A stretch of DNA of 46,900 nucleotides from the IMG/VR virus record IMGVR_UViG_3300027861_004723; one strand, given 5' to 3'. The DNA is from an uncultured virus (IMG/VR IMGVR_UViG_3300027861_004723). Taxonomy: Duplodnaviria > Heunggongvirae > Uroviricota > Caudoviricetes. The notes beneath the pieces are model-generated. The model searched no databases, was not told the origin of the DNA, and saw nothing but the letters and a program-made list of their open reading frames with translations. This document shows, piece by piece, positions 14,241-46,900 of this stretch. The translations under genes were made by a program, and so were the position numbers. Position 1 is the stretch's first letter. Each line of letters opens with the position of its first letter.

Positions 14241-14302
14241 ACATCTCTTGACAGGATCTACCTATCCGTGCAAGATACTGCTTGCAACGGCAAGGTAAAG
14301 AT

Positions 14303-17682: not shown

Positions 17683-17753
17683 CGCGCAGAAGTCTACGAG
17701 TACGACGCTGGCCTCATAAACCAGAGAATCGGGTGCGACTCCCGGCTGCGCTA
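17683..17753 (+). tRNA. tRNA-Met(CAT), divergent, initiator-like 1:72 mismatch
   Basis: Acceptor CGCGCAG/CTGCGCT, D GTC/GAC, loop CTCATAA, T arm TCGGG-TGCGACT-CCCGG; own promoter 17640-17668; no CCA. Confidence 0.7.
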
Positions 17754-24859: not shown

Positions 24860-25001
24860 GATTGGATAGCTTAGTTGGCAGAGCGTCGAGACGTGCTCTA
24901 TCATGCGGAGAAAAGGTTGATGCGGCCACCACGCCATAGATACCAAATCTACAAAGATAGTAATAAATCTCGGAGGTAGGGTTCAAATCCCGTTCCAATC
25001 A
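24860..25001 (+). ncRNA. tRNA-scaffold RNA (142 nt), anticodon loop replaced by a ~77-nt domain
   Basis: Acceptor GATTGGA/TCCAATC, TAGCTTAGTTGGCAGAGC D arm, stem TCGAGA/TCTCGG, GGGTTCAAATCCC T arm. Confidence 0.75.
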
Positions 25002-29744: not shown

Positions 29745-30077
29745 ATGACACTTAAAGAAGGTGCTGTTACTGCGGGAGCGGGCGCTTTAATTCTTGTAGT
29801 CCTCTTTTTTATGGCTTTTGGTATTAAGGGCTGTGCTGGGCAAAGCGGATTCTTTAGTAGATGGACGGGGGTTGCTGTTAAGTTGCCTGTCCCAGAAGAC
29901 TGCGTAAGGATTATCAACTTTAGCAAGACCGGGGAAACCAAACTGCTGAGTTATATCAATGACAAAGGCGAAGCGGTAATGCACGAATACAGCGATCATG
30001 GTGTGCTGGAAGCCACCTATAAGATTGATGGTGCTAGCTTCAATGCTGATTTGACGAGGCAACCGGCCAACAAATGA
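29745..30077 (+). CDS. Membrane-anchored or lipoprotein-like hypothetical protein
   Basis: GGAGG SD; hydrophobic N-terminus followed by KGC. Confidence 0.75.
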   Translation: MTLKEGAVTAGAGALILVVLFFMAFGIKGCAGQSGFFSRWTGVAVKLPVPEDCVRIINFSKTGETKLLSYINDKGEAVMHEYSDHGVLEATYKIDGASFNADLTRQPANK

Positions 30078-30365
30078 CTTACGCATGATTTCACACGATA
30101 TGGTACAAGCTGCGGAGGAACTAGCAAGAGACCTAAAGTTTGCTAAAGACTCCTGTTACAAGGTAACGGATTCCAGCTTGGAAAAGCCCTTGAAAATCCC
30201 CAGCAATGTTGCTAGAAAACTAGCCAAACCGTTTGGTAATCCCGGCATTTTGTATAGGTGCTCTGGATGTCCTGAGTGGCATATCAGAAACTCTGGGCTA
30301 CCAGATGGCGTAACTCGTCAAGGTTTTATTGCGTTGATGAAACTGATTAGAGCTTAGGAGGATTT

Positions 30366-30779
30366 ATGGGCACAACAACATTGGAAAACTGGAGAGAGGT
30401 TGATTGGGACTTGCTTGATATTCCCCAGCTTGAGTGTATTCAAGCTAAGTTGCTGCGAGAGCGCAGAAAGCTGCAAAAACAAAAAGATAAGGCCCCGCGT
30501 CAGAGGGGCCTTCGTCTGAAGAAACGTCTGGGTACGAACAGGAAACAGCTACAAGGCGTTATCAGCCGTATTTCTAGACATCGTAAAAAGGGTGATCTTC
30601 CTTTTGTCTATAAGAAAGCATTGTGTTTGGCCCTAGCCAGGGGAGAGTTTCCTGATGAGGTTAGGGACTTGTTGGTAAGGGCTAAAAAAGCAAGTAATTC
30701 TAAAATAGATGGCTGGCTTCACGACTTTGTGGAGTATTCCAAACGAAATAACCCAAAACCCTCGGAGGACGAGGATTAA
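30366..30779 (+). CDS. Basic coiled-coil hypothetical protein
   Basis: AGGAGG SD. Confidence 0.75.
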   Translation: MGTTTLENWREVDWDLLDIPQLECIQAKLLRERRKLQKQKDKAPRQRGLRLKKRLGTNRKQLQGVISRISRHRKKGDLPFVYKKALCLALARGEFPDEVRDLLVRAKKASNSKIDGWLHDFVEYSKRNNPKPSEDED

Positions 30780-30780
30780 A

Positions 30781-31097
30781 ATCATGGTCGGTGAGTGAGC
30801 AATCTCTTTCTAGCTCTTGTGAGATACTATTCCGCAGTGGTATCAGTCACGAGAGGCGTAGGCTAAGATAGAAGCATGTGCTTCAGCGTTTTACCTACTT
30901 ATTCCTTCGTAAAATAGCAACAGCAGGATTACCTCCTTTCTTTGCTTGAACGTAGAATAGGGCTCACCAATAGAAGCAAGGGGCTTAGAGTTTAGAGCGG
31001 TTAATAGTTTTTACATTCCTGCCAATGGGCAGATTTGGAACAGGCTATAGCTAAAACAACTAAACTCAGCCCCAGGCTTCGCCTTTACATCGGTGGT
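30781..31097 (+). ncRNA. Candidate ~320-nt structured RNA containing a 16S-3'-end-like anti-SD tract
   Basis: No convincing ORF; stems TCTTGTGA/TCACGAGA, TTGCTT/AAGCAA, GGGGCT(TA)GAGTTTAG/CTAAACTCAGCCCC; GGATTACCTCCTTTCT at 30926-30941. Confidence 0.5.
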
Positions 31098-31102
31098 AAT
31101 AA

Positions 31103-31267
31103 ATGACTGATAATGAACAACTACGAGCCTGGCTCGACAAAGAAAACTGTGATATGGATGCTGTTCGTCGGGCAGTTGAACTGTTGGTAGAAAAACATAA
31201 TCATAGATACCTGCTAAATAAGAAACTTGGAAACCAGCAAGTAGCAGAGAAACTCGGGGAAATTTAG
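31103..31267 (+). CDS. 54-aa hypothetical protein (below the ORF-track cutoff)
   Basis: MTDNEQLRAWLDKENC...; GGTGG SD; abuts the next ATG. Confidence 0.6.
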   Translation: MTDNEQLRAWLDKENCDMDAVRRAVELLVEKHNHRYLLNKKLGNQQVAEKLGEI

Positions 31268-31711
31268 ATGTTTCAAAAAATGTTAAATGATCTTCGGGAG
31301 AGGCGGGCAGACGCCAAATGCGAAGGGCAAACCATCTATTGTCGAGTTTGTGGGCTAGAAGCTCGCTCATTTGATTACTTTGATGATTCTAAACCCTCAC
31401 CCGAACAAACCTGTTATCATTGTTCAGATATGATTAGCAAAGGTTTTAATCCTGAAACAGAGAGCTTTCCTGATTCATGGTTTACCACTAATGGAACAAT
31501 CGAGTTTTCCCAAACACTTACTGGGGAGCAGGCTACAGCCTTTGAAGCTCTGCTAAGAATTGAGTGCAGGCAGGATAGGACCAGCCGAGCCCAAGCCAAG
31601 GAGGGTTCTGGTAATTGTGGTTATCAGTGGTGTAGGGCTAGAGAGCAGCTAAAAGCTGCCTTTGGCGTGGTGGCACCGGCACCCATTGACAGTAGTGGGG
31701 ATCAAGGGTAG
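31268..31711 (+). CDS. Zn-binding hypothetical protein
   Basis: CxxC pairs; C-terminus runs through the promoter at 31686. Confidence 0.7.
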   Translation: MFQKMLNDLRERRADAKCEGQTIYCRVCGLEARSFDYFDDSKPSPEQTCYHCSDMISKGFNPETESFPDSWFTTNGTIEFSQTLTGEQATAFEALLRIECRQDRTSRAQAKEGSGNCGYQWCRAREQLKAAFGVVAPAPIDSSGDQG

Positions 31712-31751
31712 ACTGCTATCTCACGACGGATCAAAGAGAAAAGAGGGTTAC

Positions 31752-32156
31752 ATGGGTTACTGCATGAGCCAGTGCGAGTCAGATTTTTTCGTTCCCGCCG
31801 ATAAGCTGGGCGCGATGGTTGCGGCTATTCAAGCCCTTCACGGCGAGGAAACCATTGGAGACAGTAGCGGACGGCACTTCTCCTGGGTGCCGCAGAATTT
31901 CCACACCATCTCTGATCCAGTCGAGTCTTTGCGGGCGTGGCGCTGGGACGCTGAATTGGACGACGAGGGCAACATCAATGTTCTTTACTTTGGTGGGGAA
32001 AAGGTGGGAGACGAAGACACTTTGTTCTCCGCTATCGCCCCTTTCGTTAAGGCGGGTTCCTACATTGAGATGCAGGGTGAGGAAGGGGAGCGTTGGCGCT
32101 GGCTCTTTGACGGGCAGGAGATGACCGAAAAGAGTGCTACTATTACTTGGGATTAG
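31752..32156 (+). CDS. Conserved phage hypothetical protein (MGY...GEK...IAPFV..GSYIEMQGEEGERWRW)
   Basis: Promoter, GAGG SD, recalled motif. Confidence 0.8.
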   Translation: MGYCMSQCESDFFVPADKLGAMVAAIQALHGEETIGDSSGRHFSWVPQNFHTISDPVESLRAWRWDAELDDEGNINVLYFGGEKVGDEDTLFSAIAPFVKAGSYIEMQGEEGERWRWLFDGQEMTEKSATITWD

Positions 32157-33059
32157 CCTTGACAGTAAGAATTGGAAAGGCTAACATCAGGTTTCCTATG
32201 AGGGGAACATAACATGGACGCACTCTGCAATTCACAAACACAAGAATCTAAAGAAACAACAGAGGCCCAGTCTGCATCCTGGCGAGAAGCCCAGGACGCT
32301 CTAGGTGACTGGCCGGGTTGGGAGTAACTATGGCTTTTTTTGACGTTGACGTTGATGAAACCCGCCACTATCGTATGCGCTACCGCATTGAAGCTGATAG
32401 CCCAGAACAGGCTATTCTTATGGCCGAGGAGGGCAACACTACCCAAGAGTGGGAGGATTCCTTTGAGGGGATTCTAAACCGTGGGGTGGATTCCGAAGTA
32501 ACCCCGATTCCAATGTTTTTTGCGGTAGAGTATGATCTGAGCTACTTTGGTGGCGACTATCATGGTTGTGGGGAAGATGTTTTTCTCCCTGCCGAGGGCC
32601 TGACAGACGAAAACCTACCAGAGAGGTTCCGAGAAAAGACCGGGCACGATCCAGTGCATATTGTTCATTACTGTTTTGACGAGCCAGTAGACGAATCCGG
32701 TGAATCATTAAATGGCTAAATGGACCGCCGCCCCTGATGGTTTGAGTGTTGCCCTTCTTACCACCGAGGAGGATGCAGCTTCTACTCAAGCGCGAGAAAA
32801 CAAAGACCCATCTTGGGCTTATTTCCACGTTGAGCTTGAACTTCTTAGCGATAATTCTGGCACTTGGGCCGCTCATCTAGGCGAACGAATTGGTGATAGG
32901 ATGTGGACTATCCTTAAAGGCGGGGGCTGCTGGTGGTGTGAGAATAAGCGCGATCTAGCAGCTAAGGAAAAGTCCAAGGTGAACCAGAGTTTGAACACCC
33001 ACATCCATTGACAGTAATCCCGTTCCGTGCTACCTTATGGGCAGTAAGAGGAGAGAAAC

Positions 33060-33518
33060 ATGGCGAACAACTATTATCAGGCAACCATGTTGCCCGACAG
33101 CATTAGCCTCAACCCGATGCATCAAGCCTATCTAGCAATGACCGGGGCTAGCTTGGATTCGGAGAGCGATGGTCGTTTCTACGTCTACTGGGAGGAATCT
33201 CTTTCTGAGGAGGTAGACGAGTGGGCTATTGACGACGCATTGGATGAGGGAACGATTACCCAGGAGTTTGCTGACTTTATCAAAAAGAACAACTTTAACG
33301 ATATGATGCGTCATATCTTGATGTATAACCCCGAGGTTACGCATCTTGAGATTTCTGGTGCTTGGACTTGTAGCAAGATGCGGCCCGGTGAGTTTGGTGG
33401 AGCAACTTGTATTGTTTCCCGCACTGAGCATCTTGATATGAACACGGGGTCAGCTTCCTTCAATAAGGAAACTGGTAAGATTGAAGTTAGGTTTAACATT
33501 AGGACTTTTGATGAGTAA
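33060..33518 (+). CDS. Conserved hypothetical protein (TCSKMRPGEFGGA motif)
   Basis: Sub-family C promoter at 33008, GAGGAG SD. Confidence 0.8.
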   Translation: MANNYYQATMLPDSISLNPMHQAYLAMTGASLDSESDGRFYVYWEESLSEEVDEWAIDDALDEGTITQEFADFIKKNNFNDMMRHILMYNPEVTHLEISGAWTCSKMRPGEFGGATCIVSRTEHLDMNTGSASFNKETGKIEVRFNIRTFDE

Positions 33519-34190
33519 CCCTCTGACCATAGTTCTCCACAAAGACCTAACCCCGCACCAAATCGCAACAAGTCTTCGTATTTTTGCCGGTATCATGGAA
33601 CAAAGTGATACTCAAGATGAGGCCCGTAAACAGCTAAAACTGTTGGCTGATATGATTGGGGAAACTCCTGCGGCGAAAAAGCTGTTAGACGAAATGAGTG
33701 CAGGAGAAAAGCAAAAGCGTAGAATCCTCATTTCCGACGAGGAAAGTGATAATATCAATCGGTTGGTAGAGCCCTTTGTTAAGGCAGAACGCCAGGTAAA
33801 TCACCACCCAACTACGGTTGGAATGACTGAGCGCGGAGTCGTTATCACCCTGCATGATGCCAGTAAGATTCTAGTTCGCACATATCAGCCAGGGGAGAAG
33901 ATCCCGCAAGGATAGAAATGAGAAACGTGAGTAAGCCGACTGCGGAGGATTACGCCGAAGCTGGTAAAAATCAGCCTAAGATTGTGGCCCAGGAGAACCC
34001 TCGCCCGATATTCCAAAAGAGCATTAGGCGGAAGGATCCAATCACCCGAAAACTTTCTAGGGTTCTAGTAGGAAAGCGCGTTCAGGGTTTTTACGATGCG
34101 GGTGGAAATCTGCGGGTGGAAATCTGAAGACACGACAAATGTTTGACAGACAAGTGGCTCTAAGAGGTCTTAGAGGCAGGAGGTGGTATC

Positions 34191-35345
34191 ATGCCCCTAA
34201 ATGTACAGAAGTATCTGCGTGATGGGGGCACCCTAGAGGGGCTTACTGAGGATCTTGGTATCCGCATCCATCATCATTCCGAGCTACCCCTTGTGGGATT
34301 TAGCTATAGCCAAATCGACAGCCCTAAGACGAACAACATCGTACGTGAGAGCCGGGGCCTTACTCTGGAAAAAGGCTCCTGGCGTATTGTCGCTAAGGCT
34401 TTCAACCGCTTCTTCCGTCTAGGAGAGTTTGCGGAGGAGTACGAAACTTTCAACTGGAGCGATTTTGATTGCTATACCAAGGCTGATGGTAGCCTAGTAT
34501 TGGTCTATAACTATCAGGGAAAGTGGTATGCCAAGACTCGTGGTAGTTTTGGAGGCGGCGAGGTTCCAAACAATCTGCCTGATTACTCCCCCAGTTTCAG
34601 TGAGTTGTTCTGGGACATCATGAAGGATAAGGGCATTGATCTTAGCAAGGTTTTGGATCCTGCTAACACCTATGTTTTCGAGATGTGCAGCAAGTTTAAC
34701 AAGGTTGTTCGGCTTTACGAAAAGCCTACTGCCTACCTACTTGCTGTTTTTAACAACGAGACTGCAAAGGAGCTTGCTCATGATTCCGTGGATACCCTTT
34801 CTGTGGAAGCTGGCCTGGATCGAGTGGAGCGATTCCACTTTACCTCTCTTGGGGAGGTCCAGGCTTATATGAAGCAGCAAGAGGATGCGGACCCCACTTA
34901 TGAGGGGGTTATCGTTTGCGACGACAAGCTGTTGCGCTTCAAGGTAAAGAGTATCACTTATGATGCCCTGCATCATATGTTTGATAACGGAAACATCTAT
35001 AACCCGAAGCGCCTTGTTCCTTGGGCTCTGAACCCTGATCCTAGCACTCTGCTAGAAACATACCCAGAGGTAAAGGAGCACCTTGATGCTGTTAAGGGCA
35101 AGGTAGACGAGTCTTACGACCAGCTACTAAAGGTCTGGAAAGAGCACCACAAGATTGAGGAGCAACGGACATTCGCCCAGGCTATTAAGGGCAAGACACC
35201 TTTCATGGGTCTACTGTTTGCCCTTCGTAAGAAGACTGGTATCCGAGGCCCTGGCGGGTTCGCCCCTGGCGAACAAACCGAGGAGCAGCTTTATACTCTT
35301 TGGCGTGATAGCGTGGACGGGATTGTTAAGGTTCTGTTCAAGTGA
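34191..35345 (+). CDS. T4 Rnl1-type RNA ligase
   Basis: RESRGL, FNRFF, motif I KADGS, FE, motif IV YEGVIV, motif V KVKSITY; AGGAGG SD. Confidence 0.9.
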   Translation: MPLNVQKYLRDGGTLEGLTEDLGIRIHHHSELPLVGFSYSQIDSPKTNNIVRESRGLTLEKGSWRIVAKAFNRFFRLGEFAEEYETFNWSDFDCYTKADGSLVLVYNYQGKWYAKTRGSFGGGEVPNNLPDYSPSFSELFWDIMKDKGIDLSKVLDPANTYVFEMCSKFNKVVRLYEKPTAYLLAVFNNETAKELAHDSVDTLSVEAGLDRVERFHFTSLGEVQAYMKQQEDADPTYEGVIVCDDKLLRFKVKSITYDALHHMFDNGNIYNPKRLVPWALNPDPSTLLETYPEVKEHLDAVKGKVDESYDQLLKVWKEHHKIEEQRTFAQAIKGKTPFMGLLFALRKKTGIRGPGGFAPGEQTEEQLYTLWRDSVDGIVKVLFK

Positions 35346-35798
35346 AACAAGTCCGTGACGAAATTGATAGCGCCCATAGTGATCCTATGGGCGCTATCGC
35401 TTCCGAGCATTGGTGTCCAGTGCTTAGTTACATAGTCTTGAATCCAGAACTAATGTCTCCTGATGTATGGCATCGGGCAGGGCGGTTTCTTGGTCATGGA
35501 GCGGGGTGGCCTTTTATCCCTGTAAGGTACGGCGTTCTCTTTACACTAATAGAAGATGAGGATAAGATATGAAAACCGGAATTATCAGTGACCACCCATA
35601 CTACAAAAAGTTGGTTGAAGCATTCATTGTGGAGAGGGGTCGTCCTCCCAATGACCTAGACAAATTGTCTCTGCAAAAGGATTTTGAAATCCAGCTTTTG
35701 ATTGGAATCCAGCAACGTCTTGACCGTATTGAAGATAGGATTATTAGGATTGAACCAAAATAAAACGGCCAACGAAAAAGCGATGAAGGGGATACCAG

Positions 35799-36040
35799 AT
35801 GGGTAGTGCTAGTGGACGATAGAATGCCCTAAGTGCGAGTATGCAGAAGCATATTCGGATAGTTATTACAAAGAGGGCTCCCTTTACATAGAGTGCCCCA
35901 AATGTCGATACAGCTATTCGCGAACTAGAATACTAGCTCCCGAGGGTAGCGAAGATTACTTTCTGGGCGACGGTAGCCAAGATGACCACTTTGAAATCGA
36001 AGAGGGTTATCGGTCTGAAAGTAAGGCTCTTGATCCTTAA
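35799..36040 (+). pseudogene. Frameshifted Zn-ribbon protein gene
   Basis: SD + ATG GGT AGT GCT AGT GGA stops at codon 8; the -1 frame continues IECPKC...YYK...CPKC to TAA 36040 and has no start of its own. Confidence 0.55.
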
Positions 36041-36063
36041 AACGGCTGTGATACTATTTCTGT

Positions 36064-36933
36064 ATGAAATATACAACCGTAAGAGAGTCCCGACTCGACA
36101 CCACCAAAAAGTTCGTTTTTAGCGTTAAAAATCAAGAAGTTGAGTTTAGCTACATACATAAAAACGATGGTAAAGACATCATCGTTTGCCCTACGCAGAC
36201 ATCCTGCAAAATGGGATGCACCTTTTGCTTCCTAACAGGAATGGATCTTCCTGTAGTCAATCTAACCGCAGAGGATATTGCTACTGGAGTGCAGGCTGTT
36301 GTAGAGAAAGCTGGGTTGCCAGAATCACCGGAATTGCTACTATCCTTTATGGGTGCTGGCGAGCCCCTACTAAACTATAAGCACGTAATAAACGGCTGCA
36401 AAAAGGTGTGCCAGACAGCGCAATCGCACGTCGGATATAAGACTCTGCGTTTCGCTATAGCGACTATGATTCCAAGCTCTGCTTTAATGCGAGGGTTTAC
36501 GGAGGCATCTAAGCTGTTTAATTTTAAGGTCCACTTATCATTGCATAGCCCCTTTGACGACGTTCGCCGCAAGATGATGCCGCAGGCTGTGCTGGTAAAA
36601 GAGAGCCTAGAGCTTCTGCGTGAGCATAAGGCTTATACAGGCCATGATATAGAGATTCATTACACTTTGATTGATGGGTTTAATGATAGAGACGAAGACC
36701 TTGAGAAATTGTTAAAACTTCTTGACGCTGATACTCCCATTAAGTTTCTCGATTTTAAGGCCAAGCCCGGAACAACAATGCGTAAATCTAGTCGTGTAGA
36801 TGAGTTTAGAGATGCACTAGAGAACGCGGGAATCATAACAGAGTTTTACAATCCCCCTGGATCTGATATTGGCAGTAGTTGCGGACAGTTTGAAAGAAAA
36901 GTGATTCCGCTGGCAAAAACTGCTGTATCTTGA
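36064..36933 (+). CDS. RlmN/Cfr-family radical SAM RNA methyltransferase, N-terminally truncated
   Basis: CKMGCTFC, FMGAGEP, LSLH, C-terminal DIGSSCGQ. Confidence 0.88.
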   Translation: MKYTTVRESRLDTTKKFVFSVKNQEVEFSYIHKNDGKDIIVCPTQTSCKMGCTFCFLTGMDLPVVNLTAEDIATGVQAVVEKAGLPESPELLLSFMGAGEPLLNYKHVINGCKKVCQTAQSHVGYKTLRFAIATMIPSSALMRGFTEASKLFNFKVHLSLHSPFDDVRRKMMPQAVLVKESLELLREHKAYTGHDIEIHYTLIDGFNDRDEDLEKLLKLLDADTPIKFLDFKAKPGTTMRKSSRVDEFRDALENAGIITEFYNPPGSDIGSSCGQFERKVIPLAKTAVS

Positions 36934-37964
36934 CAGAATAAGGGAATCGGTTATCATCATTCGCAATGAAGATTGAAAACTGGGGCGACGTTCCTGATGG
37001 AGCGAGGGTTATTGAGGACACCTACAACGAGGTTTATACCATCTTTACCCGTAGAGGGCAAAAGTGGCTTAGGCAGACTGGTTGGTGTGGTGGAAGAAAT
37101 AATCCACCTATTCCCGAAAACAGTGAACGATTTATTGACTTTGAGCCTAATGCTTTTATGGATCAGCCTTGGTATAGGATTGACTAATGAAGTTTCGAGA
37201 CACTAATATCAGCCAAAGCAATCTTACTGATTTCCTTGATCGGATTCGTAAGGAAGAAATCACAGAGGAAGTTGCTCTTTGTGAGATTATTTCCCGGCGA
37301 GAGGGTTTGGAGCTAACCTTGCTTGAGGCCGAGGAGCTACTTGCTAGGGCAGAGGACATTTATGTTCTGGAGGAGATGGCTGATAAGTATGACCAGCCGG
37401 ATTCTTCGGCTAAACCTTTGCTTGATACAATCAAAGAGGGCAGGGGTTGGGGTTGGTCCCCGGAAAAAGAGTCTGTAGGGTCTGGGTCTGGAGTTGGTAA
37501 ATGCTCTGACCCGGAGCATCCCCAGGATGATCACACCTGCCAGTGGCGGAAAAGTTGATATGAAACACAAACACGAAAACGACACCCGCGTTGAGTTTAT
37601 TCCTGATCCTCGCCGGGATGATCCCGAGGAGGGCCATACCGGCAAGGTGATTTACTACACCACCGATGGCTGGCATCGTCTTACGTGGGATGAGCCGAAT
37701 CCCAATCCTGATTTCTTCAACACCGAGCGCGTGTTCAAGCCAGAGCAGTTGAGGGCGCTGCGTAGAGTAATTGAGGCTACATCCACTATCATTGTTCACC
37801 CCCATCCTGGGGAGGGCGATGATGAGGCTATCAGCCGATTCCTTAGTGAGAACGGTGCTATTGAGTTCTTCGACGTTACTAATACGTGGGAGGAGTGGGA
37901 GTAAGCCTTGACAGGTTTCTGGAACTAAGGTAGCCTCTTAGGCATAGACCAACAGGAGCTAACC

Positions 37965-38351
37965 ATGCGCCGCAGCCAGAAAATTGAAAAGATCATCAAG
38001 GGTTTGCGCGAGCCTACTCCTGAGTCGGGTGTGGTGCGTGACGCAATCCTGCTTTTGCAGCGGGAGTTTGACAAATCCCATGCGGAGGAGTTTGAGCCCC
38101 GTGCGGGATGGGAATGTCCAGACCCAGAGCATGAGAAATGGTATGGGAAGCCCTATGAAGGCCCTACATCTCCTGATGGAGTTTGTGTTTACTACTCTCA
38201 GGCAGGCCGGGATGAGCACGCAGGAAAGCGTGTTGTTCGTCTAAAAATCGGAGCGGATTGGGTGATTCACCCTCTACCCGATGATCACGACGAGGGTGGT
38301 GAGAGCGAAGATTGGTGTGTCTTTTGTGGTCAGCCGGATGAGCGAAAGTAA
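37965..38351 (+). CDS. Hypothetical protein (CVFCGQPDERK C-terminus)
   Basis: Promoter at 37908, AGGAG SD. Confidence 0.75.
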   Translation: MRRSQKIEKIIKGLREPTPESGVVRDAILLLQREFDKSHAEEFEPRAGWECPDPEHEKWYGKPYEGPTSPDGVCVYYSQAGRDEHAGKRVVRLKIGADWVIHPLPDDHDEGGESEDWCVFCGQPDERK

Positions 38352-38678
38352 TGAGTAAAGAGAAACAGAAAACACCAAAGGCCCCTACGCCTAAAACACC
38401 AAAGCGTAAGCACAAGCATCCTGCGCGTGAAGACCCTAACGGGCCATTTGCGCCGCGAGCTACCACTAAAGACCTTGACGCAACTAAGTGCGTGGCTGCA
38501 CAACTAGGTGCTGTAGGTAATGAGCGCCAATGCGGAAGGGCTCGTGTTGATGGTGAGTGGTGCAAATGGCACGGACCTACCCACAGAGCCGAACAGAAAA
38601 CTTTGTCAGCTAACTCTGCGGCGTCTATTGACAGTGCCGCAAAAACAGGCTAAACTGGCCCTAACACGAAACAAAAGG

Positions 38679-39022
38679 AGGTAGTTACGAGCTTTGAACT
38701 TTGATCTTAGAGACAGGGATTAGTGCCCTGCGTGCTGATTATCCGAGGGTCGGATGGCAAGACGCCACTCTTAATAAGTGGTAACACTGGGTTCGATTCC
38801 CAGTCGGAACAAGTAATCAGTCCAGTGATTGAGAATATGTTATATTAAAGTTATTACTCAACACTGTTAGTTCTTGAAAGTATAAGATATTTACTACTAT
38901 GGACCTAGACTTGACCTAGACTTGCGGCCACCATGCCATTACGCCTAGCATAAAAGACTCCATAATAAATATAGAAATAAGAACTAAGCTCTAAGATCAA
39001 AGTTCAAGGCTCGAAACTACCT
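38679..39022 (+). ncRNA. ~345-nt multibranch RNA closed by a 34-bp inverted repeat, with an embedded tRNA-like (UAA) branch
   Basis: Arms 38679-38712 and 38989-39022 (32/34 Watson-Crick + one G-U); promoter 38628-38656; internal helices tile the interval. Confidence 0.75.
38740..38811 (+). tRNA. Degenerate tRNA-like domain, anticodon TAA, short variable loop
   Basis: D GTC/GAC, CCACT-CTTAATA-AGTGG, CTGGG-TTCGATT-CCCAG; acceptor only 5 bp (TCCGA/TCGGA). Confidence 0.55.
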
Positions 39023-39068
39023 ACCACACAAACCTGTTACGAAATCCAAAAGAGAAACTGAGAACATC

Positions 39069-40148
39069 ATGCCTGGTATCCTGATTGACTGGAAGCCCAC
39101 CAAGCCGCTTTCCGAGTATTCGGATGTCGAGCTTCGCCAGACTCCCCCTTACAAGCAGATTACTGCTTACGCGCAAATCGATGACCACTATGGTCTGCGG
39201 CTGACGCGAGACTGTATCACACAGTTGGAGCAGGCTCTTGCCGAGGAAGCTAGGATTGAGGATAACTTGAAGGCCGAGCCTGATATTAGTCTTTTTCCGT
39301 ATGAGAACGCTAGTCGCCGCACTAAGCAGCGGTGGAGCGCCCATATCACTGGACGTTGCAACCTTACCTGCCGTTTCTGTCGGCGTGAAGATTCACAGTT
39401 CCATCAGTGGGGGGATACGGGAGATGTCTCTCTGGAGACGGGAGATGTCTCTCTTGCAGGAGCATGTTTGCTTTGCGGGGATCAGAACGCCGCGTTCTGC
39501 GGTGACCATATCACTGGTGTTACTACTACCCAAGCGGCTACTGCCGAGATTGTTGAGGCCGAGGTGGACGAGGTGATGACTGCTGACGAGGTTCTTACCG
39601 AGGTTGTTGCTGACGAACTTTGGGATGCTGCACAGCTTGTTGCTGCTACCAAGGCTAAGGTCGAGATCAATCAGGAGGCTCTGATTCAGGGCATGTTGGT
39701 CTGGCACCGTTTCGGCCACTACCCTTGTATCTTGCTTGAGGATATGAGCAATGGATTCTGGATGATCCAGACTAAGGATGGGGATATTGAGCGCCAGGTG
39801 CGCGGTGCTATCCTGACTCCTGTTAAGCCGAACATCTTCAAGCGGGTTTGGGCTAGCCTCAAGCATCGCAAAGAGGAGAAGCAGGAGCAAGCTGCGGAAG
39901 CGGCTTTCCAGACTGCTAGGTTGCCACGCTCTGCTCATGGTGGTGGTAGTATTGTCCTCCAAGGCGGTTATGGTGGCACCACCGGAAACAGTGGGCCTGT
40001 AACTGTCAAGGGTGGTAACAACACCGAAGCCAAGCCGAAGCCAAGCCGGAAGATGCGTTATGCACTTTTGGCGGTCACTGCAACGGCTTTGACTGCGGTT
40101 GCTGTGCAACCCGAGCTTCTCGCCACCCTTACCAGTCTTATCTGGTAA
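39069..40148 (+). CDS. Multi-domain hypothetical protein: Zn-finger-like region, acidic linker, C-terminal membrane anchor
   Basis: 359-aa ORF; CxxC motifs; internal GDVSL repeat; hydrophobic C-terminus. Confidence 0.8.
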   Translation: MPGILIDWKPTKPLSEYSDVELRQTPPYKQITAYAQIDDHYGLRLTRDCITQLEQALAEEARIEDNLKAEPDISLFPYENASRRTKQRWSAHITGRCNLTCRFCRREDSQFHQWGDTGDVSLETGDVSLAGACLLCGDQNAAFCGDHITGVTTTQAATAEIVEAEVDEVMTADEVLTEVVADELWDAAQLVAATKAKVEINQEALIQGMLVWHRFGHYPCILLEDMSNGFWMIQTKDGDIERQVRGAILTPVKPNIFKRVWASLKHRKEEKQEQAAEAAFQTARLPRSAHGGGSIVLQGGYGGTTGNSGPVTVKGGNNTEAKPKPSRKMRYALLAVTATALTAVAVQPELLATLTSLIW

Positions 40149-40168
40149 GGTAGACAACTTTTCTTTCT

Positions 40169-40198
40169 GATACTCCCTGGATTAGTCCAGGGAGTATC
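40169..40198. other. Perfect 13-bp hairpin
   Basis: GATACTCCCTGGA-TTAG-TCCAGGGAGTATC; no downstream U tract on either strand. Confidence 0.7.
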
Positions 40199-41209
40199 GC
40201 TCATCACCTAAGAAACGCAGGGCAGTGATGCTTGATACTCTCAAAGAGATTGCTATTGCCTTTGGTGGTGCTGTCGTTGGGCTAGTCTGTTGTTCTATTG
40301 GTGCTATCCTTTTCGCTATTCCCTGCGCTGCTATTCTCTTGGGCCTGGTTTGGGCTTTGATGGAAATCACTGGCTTGGGACAAAACGCTGCTACAATTTG
40401 GGTGTCTGGTATAGGGGGTTTGGTTTGTATGACTATTGCTGTCTATCAACAAAACCAAGTTCATAAACGATGGATGGCCGGGATTATGGCAGAGGTAGAT
40501 CGCAAGATTGCTGCTGAGAACACGGAAGGGTAGAGAGATGTCTGACCAAGATGAAAACAGGATTTCTCTAGACGAGCTTTGGGTAATAGCTGATTATGGC
40601 TATCATGGAGATCCGGGGTGTAATGGTTACGCCTACTCCTCAAAAGAGGAAGCCCAAGCTATTGTTGATAAAACCAAAAAGAATTATCCTAAGCTACACT
40701 ACAAAGTAATGAGTGTGCAAGACTATATCTGGCAGAACAAGCGTTACCAAGACCATAACTGTGGTATTTGTTAGTGGTCTATTGCGATTACAGAAACCCA
40801 CCTTGCAATAACGAAGCTGAAAAGTTGGGGCTTGGCTGGTATGAAATTTCATTCGCAGGAATGAAACCCAAGTATTTCTGCTGTAAGGCTCATGCTATTT
40901 ATGCTATCTCCGATCCGGTCAAACATTGTGAGCTAGATGACCTTGAAGACCTAAAAGACAAAGACGGCAATGACATTAGAGGCTGAAGATGAAAGTAAAA
41001 GAAACTGTACTCTCTGGCGGTCGGACCAAGACCGACATCACTATTGACATTCTCAATAGCTGCGATATGCCCCAGACCATCTCTGCGGTAACCGTCAACC
41101 CAGACAAGAGCATTAGCTGGTCCATCTTTGGGCAGCGCAGCCCTGCTGTAGCCAGGGAAATGGCACAGGCTCTTATCAAAGCCGCTGAAATCGCAGAACG
41201 CAGCATCCA

Positions 41210-41767
41210 ATGAAACTTACCTGTCAGATGATCCTGCCGGGAGGCATAGCCGGAATAGCCTGCGGCAAGCCAGTAGGCGATGCCTTCTGTCCCGAGCATC
41301 TTGAGCTATTTATGAACCAAGATCAAATTACTGATTTCCTCAACAAAGCACTTGATAAGGGTTTTGACGTTCACGCCATCCTTAATCGAGTAACAACCAT
41401 TCGTTGTGGGCTTGCGGATACTACGGCTCGAAACCGCGAGTGGGGAACTAATAGCAAATACATCTTTGGTGTTAAAACCAAGGATGAGTGCTTTGACGAC
41501 CTGTGGGGTGGATTCTGTATCGGAATCGTTAAAAAGGATTTCTGGGAAAACGAGCGGCGATGTCTTGAAGATCGCCATATTAGTGGAGAAATCTATCTTC
41601 CGGATGACGGCCTGGGATTTAGCGAGGAGATGGAGAGCACCTTTGGTTGCGTCAGTAATACTGCAATGGGCGTGGTTACTCGTGAGATGGTGATTAGGTC
41701 ACTAACCCAAGCCGGATTTATACATTCAACTGATTTACAGGATTGGATATTGGACCACGACCCATGA
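41210..41767 (+). CDS. Hypothetical protein
   Basis: Coupled ORF (ATGA overlaps). Confidence 0.7.
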   Translation: MKLTCQMILPGGIAGIACGKPVGDAFCPEHLELFMNQDQITDFLNKALDKGFDVHAILNRVTTIRCGLADTTARNREWGTNSKYIFGVKTKDECFDDLWGGFCIGIVKKDFWENERRCLEDRHISGEIYLPDDGLGFSEEMESTFGCVSNTAMGVVTREMVIRSLTQAGFIHSTDLQDWILDHDP

Positions 41768-42760
41768 GCAAACCTAAGAAAACAAAACGCAAGAAACCGC
41801 AAGCTGTCTACGTCCTAAACACTTTTACCAGCGGAGGATCAGCCGTTCCTCATATCGGTAGCAAAGGCTGGTTGTGTTCTGATAAAGACCACAATCACTT
41901 TGCAGGACAAGTTGGTAGGGTCTGTGTAGTGTTTCGTGCTTGCTTTGATCCGTCAACCGGCGAACCTAGAGTCCCTAAAGGCTATATGCCTGTTCACTTG
42001 TATTTCCCTCTTGATCATCTGAGCAAGCGCAAGATTGGTATCAAGCGAACGGCTTTGCTGCGTGGGCAGTTTAAGATGGCGCTGGAGGAGAAGCGGGCGA
42101 AGCTGGCAAAGGAAAGCGCACAAGCTAGTAAGGATCTAAAGAAGGTTTTTGAGAGATTGGACAAATTGCTACCCGAGACTAAAAATGTGGTAAGGGATCT
42201 TTGGGATAAAGCAGGCCGAAAAAGCTGATATGGTTTGGATAAAACTTCTTAAAGCCCAGGAAACTACCCCTAAACCTAAAGAGCGTTGGTATATACATTG
42301 TAGGATTGGTAGACAATACTTTATCGTTTCTAGGTTTGGTATTAGGTGGATTAGGTGATTAAAAACGCAGAATGGTCTTGCGAATGGTGTGGAGATACAA
42401 AACCACTTTCCTGGCTTGAGTCTTTGTTCAGTTGGCTACAGCCGCGCTATTGTGCAGTATACGGGGAGGCGGCTGGTTGGCCCAGCCCCTCTTGTCGCCT
42501 ATCTGCTAGGCTAGCCGAACGAATCGCTGCTAGAACGGCTGCAACGGCTAAGAAAAAAACCCTTAAAGAGCTTCGTGGGCTGACGCTAGGTCGATTGCGC
42601 GGTAATGATCTTGCTGCGCCTTCAAACACTGCTGCTGGAATAATGAATAAGGGCTTTGATGGTGTTGGACCGTGGAGACTTGATGATGCGTCTCTTGACA
42701 GGAAAACCACGAAAGACTAAAATTGCGGCATAACGCAACCGAGCCAGAGAGCAAAACACA

Positions 42761-43108
42761 ATGGGCATGGGCAGTATGATTACTACTGACGAGCGCAAGG
42801 CAGAGGTCCGCAAGACCATCGCTGACGCGGGGCTGGATTGGTTTCGCTGTGAGCCGGGATTTCGGTTTCTCGATGCAGATGGTGACGAGTGTATTGTCAT
42901 CGGATGGGGTGGTTGGCGCGAGCCGGATCTTCTAGGAGCCCTAGACCTTTGCCCCGATGAGCATCATGGACATAGGCGCAATCATTCTCTCTTTACACTG
43001 CAATTCAAGCCTGCTACCCTGGTGGGCGCTTATTCTTACAAGGGGGAGCAATGCTTGATGAGCATCCCAGATATGGAGTTTCTATCGTGCTGTAAACCCG
43101 CTTCCTAA
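42761..43108 (+). CDS. Hypothetical protein
   Basis: Promoter 42695-42723. Confidence 0.7.
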   Translation: MGMGSMITTDERKAEVRKTIADAGLDWFRCEPGFRFLDADGDECIVIGWGGWREPDLLGALDLCPDEHHGHRRNHSLFTLQFKPATLVGAYSYKGEQCLMSIPDMEFLSCCKPAS

Positions 43109-43115
43109 CACCAAT

Positions 43116-43188
43116 GGAGGCGTAGCTCAGATGGTAGAGCAGCAGGCTTTTAACCTGCGGGTCCAGGGTTCGATCCCCTGCGCCTTCA
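43116..43188 (+). tRNA. tRNA-Lys(TTT)
   Basis: Canonical cloverleaf: GGAGGCG/CGCCTTC, GCAGG-CTTTTAA-CCTGC, CAGGG-TTCGATC-CCCTG. Confidence 0.93.
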
Positions 43189-43195
43189 TCAACAT

Positions 43196-43312
43196 GGCAT
43201 GTTAGCATAATAGTATGCGTCTTTGCTAGTGATACCGCCAATAAGAAGCGGGCAAGGAATTTTTATCACGTTTTGAGCAAAGAAGATGTAGGTGCGAGCC
43301 CTACACTTGCCT
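43196..43312 (+). ncRNA. tRNA-scaffold RNA (117 nt) with an extended, anticodon-less arm
   Basis: Acceptor GGCATGT/ACTTGCC, D GCAT/ATGC, TCTTTGCT/AGCAAAGA + GTGATA/TATCAC, T arm GTAGG-TGCGAGC-CCTAC. Confidence 0.75.
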
Positions 43313-43374
43313 TACCTAGAAAATCTCGCTAGTGATTGACAGGAAAACCCCTGCGGGCTATGATGCTATCACAA

Positions 43375-43517
43375 CCCGCACAGGAGACAGGCGTCTCACT
43401 TTTTCAATCGTGCAAGTATTACGCTGATCGGACGCGATAATCCTTCGGTTAGGATTTGAAAACAGCACAGTATTTGTAGGGAAAGACGTAAGCCAGGTTC
43501 GAGTCCTGGGTGCGGGG
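43375..43517 (+). ncRNA. tRNA-scaffold RNA (143 nt): acceptor + T arm, novel D hairpin and branched long arm
   Basis: CCCGCAC/GTGCGGG, CCAGG-TTCGAGT-CCTGG, GAGAC/GTCTC, TGCAAGTATT/AGTATTTGTA, AATCCT/AGGATT; own promoter 43336-43364. Confidence 0.7.
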
Positions 43518-43908
43518 TTATGACAAACGACAATGAGACTGTTGCAGAGTGCTATAACTGTTGCTACTGGGGCGATAGTGAGTTTTCGACGGGGCAGGAT
43601 AGAAGCAAGGTTCAGTTGTGCGTGAAGCGTGCAGTGAATCATGCAAATCCGCCAGAAACGCCGGATAGCTTTAGCTGTCCGCTTTACAAAGAAGCAGGTA
43701 ACCGTGACTGAGTGTAAGTTGGAAAAGCGTCGAGTGGTTTTTACTGCTACCTTTGAGTGCGAAATTGAGTTTGATCCCGAGACGGAGGACGAGCAGGATG
43801 CGATCTCCAATATCGACATCCCCGAAGGCGGGATCAATACTTCCATTTATTGCGAGAACTCGTTTGATATTATCGAGGTTCACAACCCGAATGAGTCAGA
43901 GGTAGACA

Positions 43909-44304
43909 ATGGGGTTTAATTCAGTTATCCTTATCGCAAATGTTGATCTTCATCGCATTGGTGACGATGAGCAGTTTGGTGCCAAGGTGAGTGAGCAACT
44001 TGGGCTCCACTGTACTGGTAGAAATAGTCCCTGGCTTACCGATGGCTTCAAAGTTGTAGCACAGCATCACGCTAATAATGTTTCGGTGATTCTAGTTGGT
44101 GGTAACACTGCTAAAATTATTGGAATGAGCCGTCGAGGTGATGGTAGCTGGGCACGAGATGGCGAAGAAGGCCAACAAGATGTTGTGCGTATCTTGAAAG
44201 AGGTTGCTCAAGATCATGGTTACCGGCTTGTCAAGATGACCGACGCGCAAAAAGCTAACAAACCTTGGGCAAAACCGTATGACGGTAATGGATGGGCAAT
44301 GTGA
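43909..44304 (+). CDS. Conserved phage hypothetical protein (MGFNSVILI...HHA...LVGGN)
   Basis: GAGGT SD. Confidence 0.75.
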   Translation: MGFNSVILIANVDLHRIGDDEQFGAKVSEQLGLHCTGRNSPWLTDGFKVVAQHHANNVSVILVGGNTAKIIGMSRRGDGSWARDGEEGQQDVVRILKEVAQDHGYRLVKMTDAQKANKPWAKPYDGNGWAM

Positions 44305-44464
44305 AGGGTCAAGTTGTTAAAAGTATTTTCGTCGGGGCTGTAATGGGTATTACAGTAGGCTACTTTGCTAGTGACCCGTGGCTGGGGCTGGGCTTTGCTG
44401 CTGGTGGTGCTGTGGGTGATCTAGCTTACAGCATGTATAAGAAGCTCACCAAGAAAAAAGATTG

Positions 44465-45151
44465 ATGGGTCAAGTGTCTGGGCGCGGAGATGTGGAAAGA
44501 TCCGGCATCATTCCCCTTGATGAGGTTTTGCCTTTTGTTTCAACGGGCAAGCCTGAACATGGGAAAGAAAAGCTGAAGGGCCGACCGCAGAAGGTTTTTA
44601 ACGGCCAGTCTGTTCATATGGACAGCCTGCGCTATCAGACATTTGTTAAATCAGGAGTAGTTTGTGTTGCTTGTGGTCTGGAGGGTAAGTATTTTGCCCT
44701 AGAGAGGCAGCTTCACCAAAAAAGCCCTCGGTATCATCTCAATCTTTACGGGCTTACGGATGGTGTGGAAATTATTTTCACTAAAGATCATATCCTTCCG
44801 CGTGGAAAAGGTGGGTCTGATCATCTCAGCAATCTACAGACGATGTGCCAACCCTGTAATTCGGCTAAAGGCTCAGATAGCAAATTTACTATTGCTCGTA
44901 AACAACGAAAGAGTCGCATTAAAAACCTGATGCACAAAGTACAAACCCAGCTTGGAGAAAACAAGCAAGAGCGCAAGCAGTATTATCAGGAGGGGTCATC
45001 GGATGGCGGGCCTGGTTTTGTTGCCTATAAAAAGCGATATGGAGTTTTGAGGGCAAGGCTCAATAGGCTAGAGCAACTAAAGGATAATAGCCGAGCACGC
45101 AGGAAAGCGGCTAGGGTTGCATCTATGGACAGTAGCACAGATCCATGCTAG
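44465..45151 (+). CDS. HNH endonuclease family protein
   Basis: CVACG...[31 protein letters not shown]. Confidence 0.88.
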
Positions 45152-45868
45152 TCTATGGGCAGTGGAGATCCTGATGAAACTCTGGCAAATCACTCAGTGG
45201 GGCAATCCGAAAGAGGGGCCTAATGGCTGGGACACTAGCGTTATTGTTCGTGCTACCTCTTTCGACAGTGCTCTAGCTGTTGGTGAAACCTTTTTTACAT
45301 CCTTCCCAAAAACAGAAGATGGTAAGCCTTACCGGGAGGGGGAGGCGAACCTAGTTGTTTTGATGGGCGACGACTTCAGTAAACTAGCTGAAGAAAAGAT
45401 TGTAATTCACGATTTTGTGCTACCTGCATTTAACTTGGGGCATTACCAAAGTTGGAAAAAAGATTGTGTCTTCAAGGATGGGAAAATAACAGGCTATGAG
45501 TGGTTTGAAAACCCTATGAAGGAAGCATGACTAAAGTAGAAATCAAGGTTCCTGCTTGTTCAAAATGCGATTGCACTATGACAGTGCAGGATGTTATTAC
45601 CAATCACCCTAAAAATGATGTAGATACTGTTATCTACTTTTGTGAAGTTTGTGGAGTTTGATGTGCCCGAGTTTGAATACCAGTTTCGTCGTGAACAACG
45701 AGTTGACTTTACCATCACTGCTGATACCAGAGAAGATGCGGATGATCTAGCCGACGACCACATCCAAAACGTCGATCTGGACTCTCCTGATGATAACAGT
45801 GATGATCCGGGTGAGTTGGAGTTTATGGGGGTTGACCATGTGGTTGATCTGCTGACCGGGATTAACAC

Positions 45869-45902
45869 AAAAAAGCCCCCAAAGTGAATTGAGGGCTTTT
45901 CT
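45869..45902. terminator. Bidirectional intrinsic terminator
   Basis: AAAAAAGCCC...GGGCTTTTCT between convergent genes. Confidence 0.7.
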
Positions 45903-45925
45903 GGGCGATAATAGTTAGCTTAGTC

Positions 45926-46405
45926 TTAGCGACGGCTACGACGACGACGACGTTTGCGGCTGCTCTTACGCTTACGCTTTCTTGCTGCTACGGTAATTGG
46001 CTCACCGGCTTCTTCGCGGAGCCAGTGACGAGCTTCTGCTAAGAGGCCCTTTTGGTTTGCGGTTAGTCTCTTACGTGAAACTGCTCCACGCTTACCACGC
46101 TTGGTGTATCGACGTAGACGAGCAAGCATCTTGTTTCTGGTCTTGAGATCCGCTTTGGTCCAAGTAGGGAATATGATGTTTTTAAGATCGCCCCAAGCGT
46201 TTCCTGGTGTTCCTTTTTTTGTAGCTTTTCTACGGAGCCTGTAGAGTCTATTAACACGGCTACGTGCTTGGCGACCCCATGAACGCTTCTTACGACTCTT
46301 ACGAATCTTTGCCTTCTTGCTTCTACGTTTACGTCCGGCCTTTGACCGCCAGTATTTTTTCATAGCGGCTACGCGCTTTCTGCTTTTCCTAGTTTTTTTT
46401 GCCAT
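45926..46405 (-). CDS. Protamine/histone-like highly basic protein
   Basis: AGGAG SD on the minus strand before MAKKTRKSRKR...; roughly two-fifths K/R by eye. Confidence 0.85.
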   Translation of the reverse strand: MAKKTRKSRKRVAAMKKYWRSKAGRKRRSKKAKIRKSRKKRSWGRQARSRVNRLYRLRRKATKKGTPGNAWGDLKNIIFPTWTKADLKTRNKMLARLRRYTKRGKRGAVSRKRLTANQKGLLAEARHWLREEAGEPITVAARKRKRKSSRKRRRRRSRR

Positions 46406-46582
46406 TTGATATATCTCCTGATTAAATAGTAGCAAAAAATAGCAAAGATTGATTCTTATTTTTCCCTATTTTTCTTATTTTTCTTATTTAATTTTTCCGT
46501 GAAAATTTAGCTGTGTCTTGACTGAATCTCTCGATGGTGCATAATGTAAGATGCCAGCCGAGAATGGTGCCTGGAGAAAAAA

Positions 46583-46900
46583 ATGAGAAACTCTGTTGCC
46601 CCTACTGACACTCAACCCCAACCCCAACCCCAACCCCAGAAGGCTTATTTCGTCTGGGTGCGTTGGAAATCTGGGGGCGTCGATAGGTTTCATATTACTC
46701 ACAATGCGGCTGCATGGTGGGCCAGTAACAGCGACAGGTATCAAGAGAAGGTTCGTCTTTCTACCCCGACAGGACAGTGCATTACTCTCGACATAACAGA
46801 AATGGTTGCCCACAAGTTGCTTGTAAAGACTATTACTATTCCAGATAGCAATAGAAATCCTCTGGAAGACGACGAGCATTACGAAAATCCGTGTAGCTAA
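46583..46900 (+). CDS. Hypothetical protein with (QP)n linker
   Basis: Promoter 46518-46545, GGAG SD. Confidence 0.7.
   Translation: MRNSVAPTDTQPQPQPQPQKAYFVWVRWKSGGVDRFHITHNAAAWWASNSDRYQEKVRLSTPTGQCITLDITEMVAHKLLVKTITIPDSNRNPLEDDEHYENPCS

Follow-up and report, generated by a model that had tools for sequence, protein, structure and literature searches.

A 34-nt inverted repeat around a tRNA-like branch in a very large marine phage: a possible stable-RNA unit of the T5 type

Organization of the locus

A 46,900-nt stretch of DNA from an uncultured virus of the Caudoviricetes (IMG/VR record IMGVR_UViG_3300027861_004723), referred to here in its whole length as the window, contains a 344-nt non-coding unit (38679–39022) in which a 34-nt inverted repeat encloses a tRNA-like branch and further helices. 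The phage from which the window derives is marine and very large, at roughly 600 kb; the protein cluster of the gene that follows the unit (39069–40148) occurs on contigs of up to 599,739 nt. The unit, its promoter, its leader and this downstream gene are all on the + strand.

An early-type promoter (TTGACA-17-TAAACT, 38628–38656), which agrees with the consensus at 10 of 12 positions, lies 23 nt upstream of the unit and is the sole promoter-like site in 38300–39300; its −10 and the stop codon of the preceding open reading frame (ORF; 38351–38653) overlap. It is followed by a short leader (38657–38678; sequence and ORF list) that ends in a Shine–Dalgarno-like AAAGGAGG. ACG occupies the position behind this GGAGG (38677–38681) where other leaders in the window have ATG, and no real ORF lies behind it, the nearest start being a TTG at 38694 that opens a frame of 9 codons. 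The largest ORF within the unit is a GTG frame of 41 amino acids (aa), so that a preliminary description of this DNA was right to assign the unit a promoter of its own and no ORF.

Downstream of the unit, a 46-nt leader and an ORFan gene (39069–40148, 359 aa) together occupy 39023–40148, and this gene lacks a consensus promoter of its own. The interval 38300–39300 yielded no terminator-like site; with none between the unit and the gene, transcription should continue into 39069–40148, and the promoter at 38628 presumably drives both as one transcript. The gap between the flanking ORFs (38654–39068) measures 415 nt, within an otherwise tightly packed region.

Closing stem and overall fold

The 5′ arm (38679–38712) and the 3′ arm (38989–39022) of the inverted repeat, identified by repeat scan and constrained fold, are complementary at 32 of 34 positions (94%) and are spaced 276 nt apart. 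This is the longest of the 13 inverted pairs in the window, the runners-up being local palindromes of at most 25 nt. In RNA of the + strand, 33 of the 34 stem positions pair, including a U38693.G39008 wobble, in a layout of 8 bp, an A38687.A39014 mismatch, and 25 bp that include the G.U. The closing duplex has an energy of −52.6 kcal/mol, with pair probabilities of ~1.0 at 33/34 positions. The wobble would be an A.C mismatch on the − strand; this asymmetry weakly favors an RNA of the + strand, as it concerns one position.

Helices fill the interval between the arms: a small hairpin CAGGG-AUUAGUG-CCCUG (38714–38730), present in both the minimum free energy (MFE) and the centroid structures; the tRNA-like branch (38735–38820); an AT-rich hairpin CAGUG.UUGAG...CUCAA.CACUG (38823–38866); and a long, imperfect AT-rich arm (38867–38987; folds and motif scan) with an apical GGC-CACCAU-GCC at 38923–38939. 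The preliminary description had listed the 34-bp stem and these helices at the correct coordinates, and every one of them is present in the MFE structure. The long arm also contains the 11-mer GACCTAGACTT twice in tandem (38902–38923). GC content is 0.33 across 38823–38988, and the 150 nt at 38831–38980 (GC 0.327) are the second lowest in the window.

The 344-nt unit as a whole has an MFE of −121.7 kcal/mol (z = −8.2; equaled by 0/100 shuffles). The inner 276 nt give z = −2.0 on the + strand (8/200 shuffles equal) and z = −2.8 on the − strand (3/200), and the AT-rich 168 nt of the interior give z = −2.5 (1/200). The significance of the fold rests mostly on the closing stem together with the tRNA match, and the interior is marginal on both strands.

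The tRNA-like branch

ARAGORN, the Rfam tRNA model and a constrained fold all identify the branch at 38735–38820. ARAGORN calls a 74-nt tRNA-Leu with the anticodon taa (38739–38812), and RF00005 matches 38742–38808 with 35.3 bits (gathering score 29) over model positions 3–68 only; the tRNA-Asn and tRNA-Lys(UUU) of the window score 59.2 and 69 bits with the same model. The cloverleaf core (38742–38808) is divided by a 5-nt 3′ bulge, ACAAG (38809–38813), from an outer 7-bp helix, CUGAUUA (38735–38741)/UAAUCAG (38814–38820), into which the acceptor strands continue, leaving no free 3′ end. Imposing the cloverleaf costs 1.1 kcal/mol, and the outer helix and all other helices remain.

Like a canonical tRNA-Leu(UAA), the branch has U33 followed by a UAA anticodon (38772–38774), a 5-bp anticodon stem and a canonical T arm (CUGGG-UUCGAUU-CCCAG), and it passes the Rfam gathering score. 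Unlike a canonical tRNA-Leu(UAA), it has a variable loop of 5 nt without the long variable arm of bacterial-type tRNA-Leu, a defective acceptor (five contiguous pairs and then A.A and U.C; ARAGORN draws eight positions with two mismatches), and the enclosing 7-bp helix. The extended acceptor, the UAA loop and the missing variable arm had all been noted in the preliminary description. The tRNA consensus core comprises U8, A14, U33 and a purine at position 37; of this set the branch retains only U33, the other residues being G8, G14 and U37. Across 48 window ORFs, UUA is the leucine codon used least (37 of 667 leucine codons; UUG, 142 of 667). We regard the branch as tRNA-derived, but it is probably not a working leucine tRNA.

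The 4227 Rfam models that we used, presumably including GOLLD, ROOL and YrlA, yielded no family other than tRNA at gathering score across the window, and in a search of 38600–39100 at E ≤10 no model but tRNA attained its gathering score (best other match, 21.1 bits versus a gathering score of 65.7). The unit therefore matches no known class beyond tRNA, as the preliminary description had supposed; a match to a known family, which was named there as a sign against novelty, exists for the branch (RF00005) and is lacking for the remainder of the unit. In YrlA a long stem replaces the anticodon arm, unlike the branch described here, in which the anticodon arm is intact; moreover, a Pfam scan of 93 window ORFs revealed no Ro60/TROVE family and no transposase, recombinase, reverse transcriptase or replication initiator. 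The unit does resemble GOLLD, ROOL and YrlA in its size class, in the association with tRNAs in phages, and in the joining of a tRNA-like module to a long stem. The Y RNAs, to which YrlA belongs, are described as mimics of tRNA (PMC4201824).

Origin of the arms

The sequence of the 3′ arm, CTC-TAAGAT-CAAAGTTCAAGGC..., has the −10-like TAAGAT at 38992–38997 and corresponds to a −10/leader module common to the promoters at 330, 6420, 11843 and 12253 (repeat families D6/D7). The pattern of this promoter subfamily is TAAGAT and then CAAAG(N)TC(N)A(N)GC, comprising the −10 and the first transcribed bases. At the −35 position, where TTGACA is otherwise invariant, the 3′-arm module has ATATAG/TATAGA. 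The 5′ arm is an inverted copy of the TAAGAT-CAAAG module. Since the arms match the phage’s own promoter module, they are home-grown and not foreign ends. With up to 3 mismatches, the 19-mer core of the arms has three matches in the window, namely the two arms and 27379–27397 (3 mismatches).

A loose scan of the whole window for (c)TTGACAg-N15-19-TAnnnT gave 54 promoter-like sites on the + strand versus 2 on the − strand, mostly one per small gene; the promoter of the unit (38628–38656) is among the 54 and conforms to this extended consensus of the phage.

The CACCAY arm and other tRNA-like genes

The hairpin motif at the tip of the long arm, TGCGGCCACCAYGCCRT, occurs three times in the window versus 0.29 expected (0/100 shuffles reach three), each time on the + strand and in non-coding DNA: in the unit (38923–38939), in the anticodon-loop insert of the tRNA at 24860 (24921–24937), and in a non-coding stretch behind the promoter at 8472 (8759–8775). 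All three arms fold into long, imperfect hairpins tipped GGC-CACCAY-GCC, with common flanks of CTAT...GGA on the 5′ side and ATA-(A/G)TAATAAAT on the 3′ side. RNAalifold places 8 pairs on the three arms at −4.2 kcal/mol, three sequences being too few for inference. The CACCAY arm is thus a repeated module of this phage, and the shared hairpin of the preliminary description recurs beyond chance. Matches to the motif outside this phage (27 in IMG/VR) were attributed to chance: 26/27 lie in open frames and 0/27 near a tRNA.

Besides the branch of the unit, the window encodes three aberrant tRNA-like genes. The first (24860–25001; Rfam tRNA 34.5 bits in a local search) has a perfect 7-bp acceptor, a canonical D arm and a 78-nt anticodon “loop,” 69 nt of which ARAGORN interprets as an intron. 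Folded, the insert forms an arm that has GGC-CACCAC-GCC at its tip and is the module seen in the unit. No simple excision leaves a sensible 7-nt anticodon loop, and a group I intron was rejected because the insert is too short; the gene could contain a protein-spliced intron (the phage has RNA ligases) or could specify an RNA like T5 rna1. The second, a tRNA-shaped RNA of 143 nt (43375–43517) directly behind the promoter at 43336, folds with z = −3.8 (0/200 shuffles equal) into a 7-bp acceptor (CCCGCAC/GTGCGGG), a D-like hairpin, a branched arm of ~90 nt and a canonical T arm (CCAGG-TTCGAGT-CCTGG); it has no Rfam match. The third, with the anticodon CAU (17683–17753), scores 36.7 bits with the Rfam tRNA model and was not called by ARAGORN. 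Promoters directly before tRNA or tRNA-like genes are found at 11058 (tRNA-Asn), 17640 (17683–17753) and 43336 (43375–43517).

Two further observations concern these regions. The ~330 nt between the promoters at 8472 and 8812 contain no ORF of at least 50 aa in the ORF list and end in a well-paired, CACCAU-tipped hairpin (8753–8781), with 8733–8800 folding at z = −3.2; we consider 8472–8812 a further candidate stable RNA. At 17683–17753 there is also a weak match to the Tymovirus tRNA-like family, and a perfect tandem 36-nt repeat (17577–17648) precedes this gene and holds the −35 of its promoter.

Search for relatives and population variation

In 50,697 phage records no match was found to 38500–39200 by blastn, to 30000–46900 by megablast, or to the 359-aa protein encoded downstream by tblastn; for this protein there was also none in IMG/VR. 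The arm 19-mer matched nothing in IMG/VR, and its two matches in GTDB genomes, both in archaeal metagenome-assembled genomes, were taken as chance. A pattern of anticodon arm plus T arm had 0 matches in GTDB genomes. The 86-mer of the tRNA-like branch matched 61 phage records, none of them over at least 80% of the query; among the matches listed, coverage was at most 45%, mostly of the T-arm part.

A scan of 241 million metagenome records for the arm 17-mer yielded 103 loci. Both arms were present in one of these (L046), which matches the window at 100% identity along 5314 nt. Some 15–20 further loci were rejected as relatives, as they are low-complexity hairpins with a CTTTG/CAAAG period of 8 on unrelated contigs, and the best extended match (L015, 30/35) lies inside a 268-aa ORF; all loci other than L046 were ascribed to chance or low complexity. 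Long hairpins of this period-8 type that happen to contain the arm 17-mer occur at L102, L040, L088, L054, L085, L023 and L053; at L040, two arms lie upstream of an ATG and resemble back-to-back −10/leader modules. The loci of distant Rnl1-type RNA ligase relatives (LR756511.1, 37% identity; IMG/VR L105, 42%; L106, 38%) contain tRNA genes or clusters and no comparable inverted repeat.

Population variation was checked in 4 marine runs, picked from 16 for their intermediate word shares, which provided 13 contig pieces. Twelve of these have 0 differences from the window, and the remaining one matches only partially, over 35 nt with 4 differences, and its flanks are unrelated. No deletion, inversion, empty site or rearranged joint was seen in the 13 pieces, which give partial cover and show presence, not absence. 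The six pieces (from all 4 runs) that cross an arm junction are all in the orientation of the window, although contigs may miss rare forms.

A possible stable-RNA unit of the T5 type

Phage T5 provides the closest parallel. Its annotation (GenBank AY543070.1) combines early promoters, small ORFs, HNH genes and tRNAs with eight misc_RNA features labeled “stable RNA with unknown functions” or “tRNA-like stable RNA,” the latter being rna1, rna2 and rna3. A repeat scan shows inverted repeats on either side of T5 rnaIII (6285–6390; 18 nt), rnaIV (8839–8941; 20 nt) and rna2H (7809–7980; 15 nt), and the annotated ends of rnaIII and rnaIV lie within the repeat arms; rna1 and rna2 adopt a cloverleaf fold in which the anticodon arm is much extended. 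Like the T5 stable RNAs, the unit is free of ORFs, lies in an early region dense in sigma-70-type promoters, tRNAs, small ORFs and HNH genes, and has long closing repeats at its 5′ and 3′ ends, and 24860–25001 and 43375–43517 of the window have expanded anticodon arms as in rna1 and rna2. Unlike the single small RNAs of T5, the unit encloses a normal-sized tRNA-like cloverleaf together with further arms.

We tentatively favor the interpretation that the unit is a stable-RNA unit of the T5 type, in which the long leader–trailer duplex would serve as a processing stem for RNase III. Host RNA polymerase would start at the promoter at 38628–38656 and transcribe in turn the 5′ arm, the small hairpin, the tRNA-Leu(UAA)-like cloverleaf, the AT-rich hairpin, the CACCAU-tipped arm and the 3′ arm, and, with no terminator present, would run on into the ORFan gene. 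Once made, the 3′ arm would pair with the 5′ arm to form the 34-bp duplex, and cleavage of this duplex by host RNase III would release an RNA of ~300 nt with clamped ends, freed from the downstream mRNA; the clamped RNA may be cut further into a tRNA-like piece and an arm piece. From the promoter, the complementarity of the arms, the tRNA-like fold, the lack of an ORF and of a terminator, and the parallels in T5, we infer that the unit is transcribed, that its arms pair in vivo, and that RNase III cleaves the duplex to leave a stable RNA.

Duplexes from about 20 bp upward are substrates of RNase III, and by this specificity the closing stem, a near-perfect duplex of more than ~20 bp around an enclosed RNA within a longer predicted transcript, should be cut. 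Bacterial rRNA operons have RNase III stems formed between leader and trailer, and polycistronic transcripts of phages T7 and T4 contain RNase III sites; RNase III also reportedly has a role in phage T4 tRNA synthesis, in work attributed to McClain in 1979 (cited in PMC4810235). As in the rRNA stems, the duplex here is long and forms between the flanks of an RNA enclosed in a longer transcript, and cutting would release the enclosed RNA as well as the message that follows it. Unlike the rRNA stems, it encloses an RNA that is not rRNA, its arms are copies of a promoter/leader module, and its cleavage is a prediction. The suggestion in the preliminary description of a precursor that would be processed at its stem is thus reasonable and has a precedent in the inverted repeats of T5 rnaIII, rnaIV and rna2H. 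No comparable unit is described in the literature found on phage tRNA introns, RNase III and tRNA precursors, tRNA-like phage non-coding RNAs, CTTTG repeats or T5 stable RNAs.

Several points weigh against this interpretation. The 3′ arm is a paralogue of the promoter −10/leader module, and the arms could be a fairly young inverted duplication without a selected role, youth being possible because they differ at two positions in 34 nt. The interior barely beats shuffled sequences, with both strands alike, which fits DNA palindromes as well as RNA. No homologue was found in the collections searched and hence no covariation of the kind that would show selected pairing and separate an RNA structure from a DNA palindrome. 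With its 344 nt and 34-bp stem, the unit has 2–3 times the size of the T5 stable RNAs, and apart from the T arm the two have no sequence in common (blastn to the tRNA region of T5 gave only matches of T-arm size, 12–29 nt). The T5 RNAs are annotated as observed stable RNAs, whereas transcription of the unit is predicted from sequence. Joint cutting of both arms would occur only if the host has RNase III.

Stable and tRNA-like RNAs of T5 are still annotated with unknown functions in AY543070.1, and the same kinds of object are found here in an unrelated marine phage of ~600 kb, in a form more extreme than in T5, a tRNA look-alike here being held in a 34-bp clamp. Expression and processing of the unit, if they occur, would make RNAs of this type a recurrent trait of large virulent phages and not a T5 oddity, and the unit would then be a tractable substrate for studying what they do. 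If it is instead a decaying tRNA beside a young inverted duplication, it documents the turnover of tRNA genes and promoter modules in phages.

Alternative explanations

The principal alternative, possible but on balance doubtful, is that the region is a neutral relic composed of a decaying tRNA-Leu(UAA) gene, AT-rich filler and a young inverted duplication of a promoter module; it would then be merely a long 5′ untranslated region of gene 39069, in which any cleavage of the duplex is incidental. The state of the branch is consistent with decay (35.3 bits versus 59–69 for tRNA-Asn and tRNA-Lys, a mismatched acceptor top, G8/G14 and U37), as are the rarity of UUA (37/667) and the match of the 3′ arm to promoter family D6/D7 with a decayed −35. 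The marginal interior z-scores, similar on both strands, the GC content of 0.33 in 38823–38988, and the failure to find relatives that keep the unit point the same way. However, a strong consensus promoter is retained directly upstream in a compact genome, the CACCAY arm is common to two other non-coding places far beyond chance, and T5 shows that units of this kind can be real stable RNAs.

It is unlikely that the unit specifies an autonomous functional non-coding RNA, for instance a tRNA mimic or decoy directed at tRNA-targeting host defenses or at RNA-repair or modification enzymes of the phage, and perhaps joined by a ligase after RNase III cleavage. The neighborhood is rich in RNA enzymes, with an Rnl1-type RNA ligase (34191–35345, 3.3 kb upstream of the unit), an RlmN/Cfr-like radical SAM RNA methyltransferase (36064–36933; NCBIfam E = 3e-34, below the equivalog cutoff), a second ligase- or capping-like nucleotidyltransferase (4450–5097; Pfam) and a full-length tyrosyl-tRNA synthetase (14282–15568; Pfam/PHROG), as well as tRNA-Lys(UUU) and tRNA-Asn. 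The cloverleaf is also embedded in a continuous helix and does not end freely, and RNase III leaves the 5′-phosphate and 3′-OH ends that Rnl1-type ligases need. Against this, the sole link to the ligase is the distance of 3.3 kb, and Rnl1 beside tRNA genes is common in large phages: tRNA genes or clusters are present at both IMG/VR Rnl1 loci found (L105 and L106), and a tRNA-Leu lies near the Rnl1 of LR756511.1. No conservation of the unit was found either, and with an interior barely above shuffled sequences on both strands, the novel large RNA class envisaged in the preliminary description is unsupported. A more specific version is most improbable: the unit as precursor of a clamped or circular tRNA mimic, its RNase III-cut ends joined by the Rnl1-type ligase to give an exonuclease-proof decoy or adaptor. 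In such a circle, the non-chargeable tRNA-Leu look-alike and the CACCAU arm would act on tRNA-targeting defenses or on phage RNA repair and modification enzymes, with the CACCAY arm as a portable RNA module because the same arm occurs inside the anticodon loop of 24860–25001.

There is little to recommend a miniature inverted-repeat transposable element (MITE) that, with inverted repeats at its ends but no transposase, would have inserted into the leader of gene 39069. Correia elements, which are MITEs of Neisseria, have terminal repeats that carry promoter boxes and transcripts that are cut by RNase III; the unit resembles them in its terminal inverted repeats with a −10-like box, its non-coding interior and its hairpin-forming predicted transcript. 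The 34-nt repeats surround a non-coding, AT-rich interior unlike its surroundings in composition, and GGAGG at 38677–38681 has no ORF behind it, as if parted from its gene. Unlike MITEs, however, the unit shows no target-site duplication (the flanks, ...AAAAGG and ACCACA..., have no direct repeat at the arm ends), is present as a single copy in the 46.9-kb window of a ~600-kb genome, and has both arms in only 1/103 metagenome loci, identical to the window. No empty-site or rearranged piece was seen among the 13 pieces from 4 runs, no transposase was found among the 93 Pfam-scanned ORFs, and the arm matches the phage’s own promoter module and not a foreign end. The multiple copies with target-site duplications by which the preliminary description would have recognized a MITE were thus not seen in the data searched.

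An element acting at the DNA level, with back-to-back −10/leader modules or protein sites flanking an AT-rich unwinding region (a transcription-primed replication origin, or a regulatory or invertible segment), is very unlikely: the divergent TAAGAT-CAAAG modules of the arms, the combination of a strong promoter with an AT-rich stretch and a tandem 11-mer, and the strand-symmetric interior palindromes would suit it, but both arms lack a −35, cumulative GC skew climbs monotonically across the window with no turn at the unit, the Pfam scan of 93 ORFs gave neither a recombinase nor a replication-initiator family, and 6/6 junction-crossing pieces have the window orientation (rare forms could be missed).

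The downstream gene and further observations

The 359-aa protein of 39069–40148 has no Pfam or PHROG family. Only two proteins were found for it among 5.8 billion, one being its own cluster and the other a distant relative (52% identity over 25% of the query). The protein has a CNLTCRFC (CX3CX2C) motif; its middle is acidic and of low complexity, and its C-terminal tail is hydrophobic. Its Atlas model has a predicted local distance difference test score of 0.47, and no PDB relative was found. A role as a tRNA-modifying radical SAM enzyme under the control of a tRNA-mimic leader was considered for it and rejected, as only the CX3CX2C motif matches, and weakly so (E at least 0.06). The window also encodes an HNH endonuclease (44462–45151; Pfam/PHROG).

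The Rnl1 closest to that of the window in the phage collection (37% identity) belongs to a 595-kb uncultured phage (LR756511.1), which encodes a canonical 84-nt tRNA-Leu(UAA) (L001, 6309–6392) 2.5 kb upstream of its Rnl1, with AAAGCTGTA motifs on either side. In a pairwise alignment with the branch of the unit, this tRNA-Leu(UAA) has extra letters at the variable-arm position.

Promoters of the window fall into subfamilies that have the −10 and first transcribed bases in common (TACCTT-ATGGGCAGTG, TAAGAT-GCAATCTCAAC and TAAGAT-CAAAG), a pattern that would imply duplicated promoter/leader modules or shared regulation. In the leader between the promoter at 330 and the ORF at 440, the 12-nt repeat GCTAACAAGGCT occurs three times in tandem (380–423).

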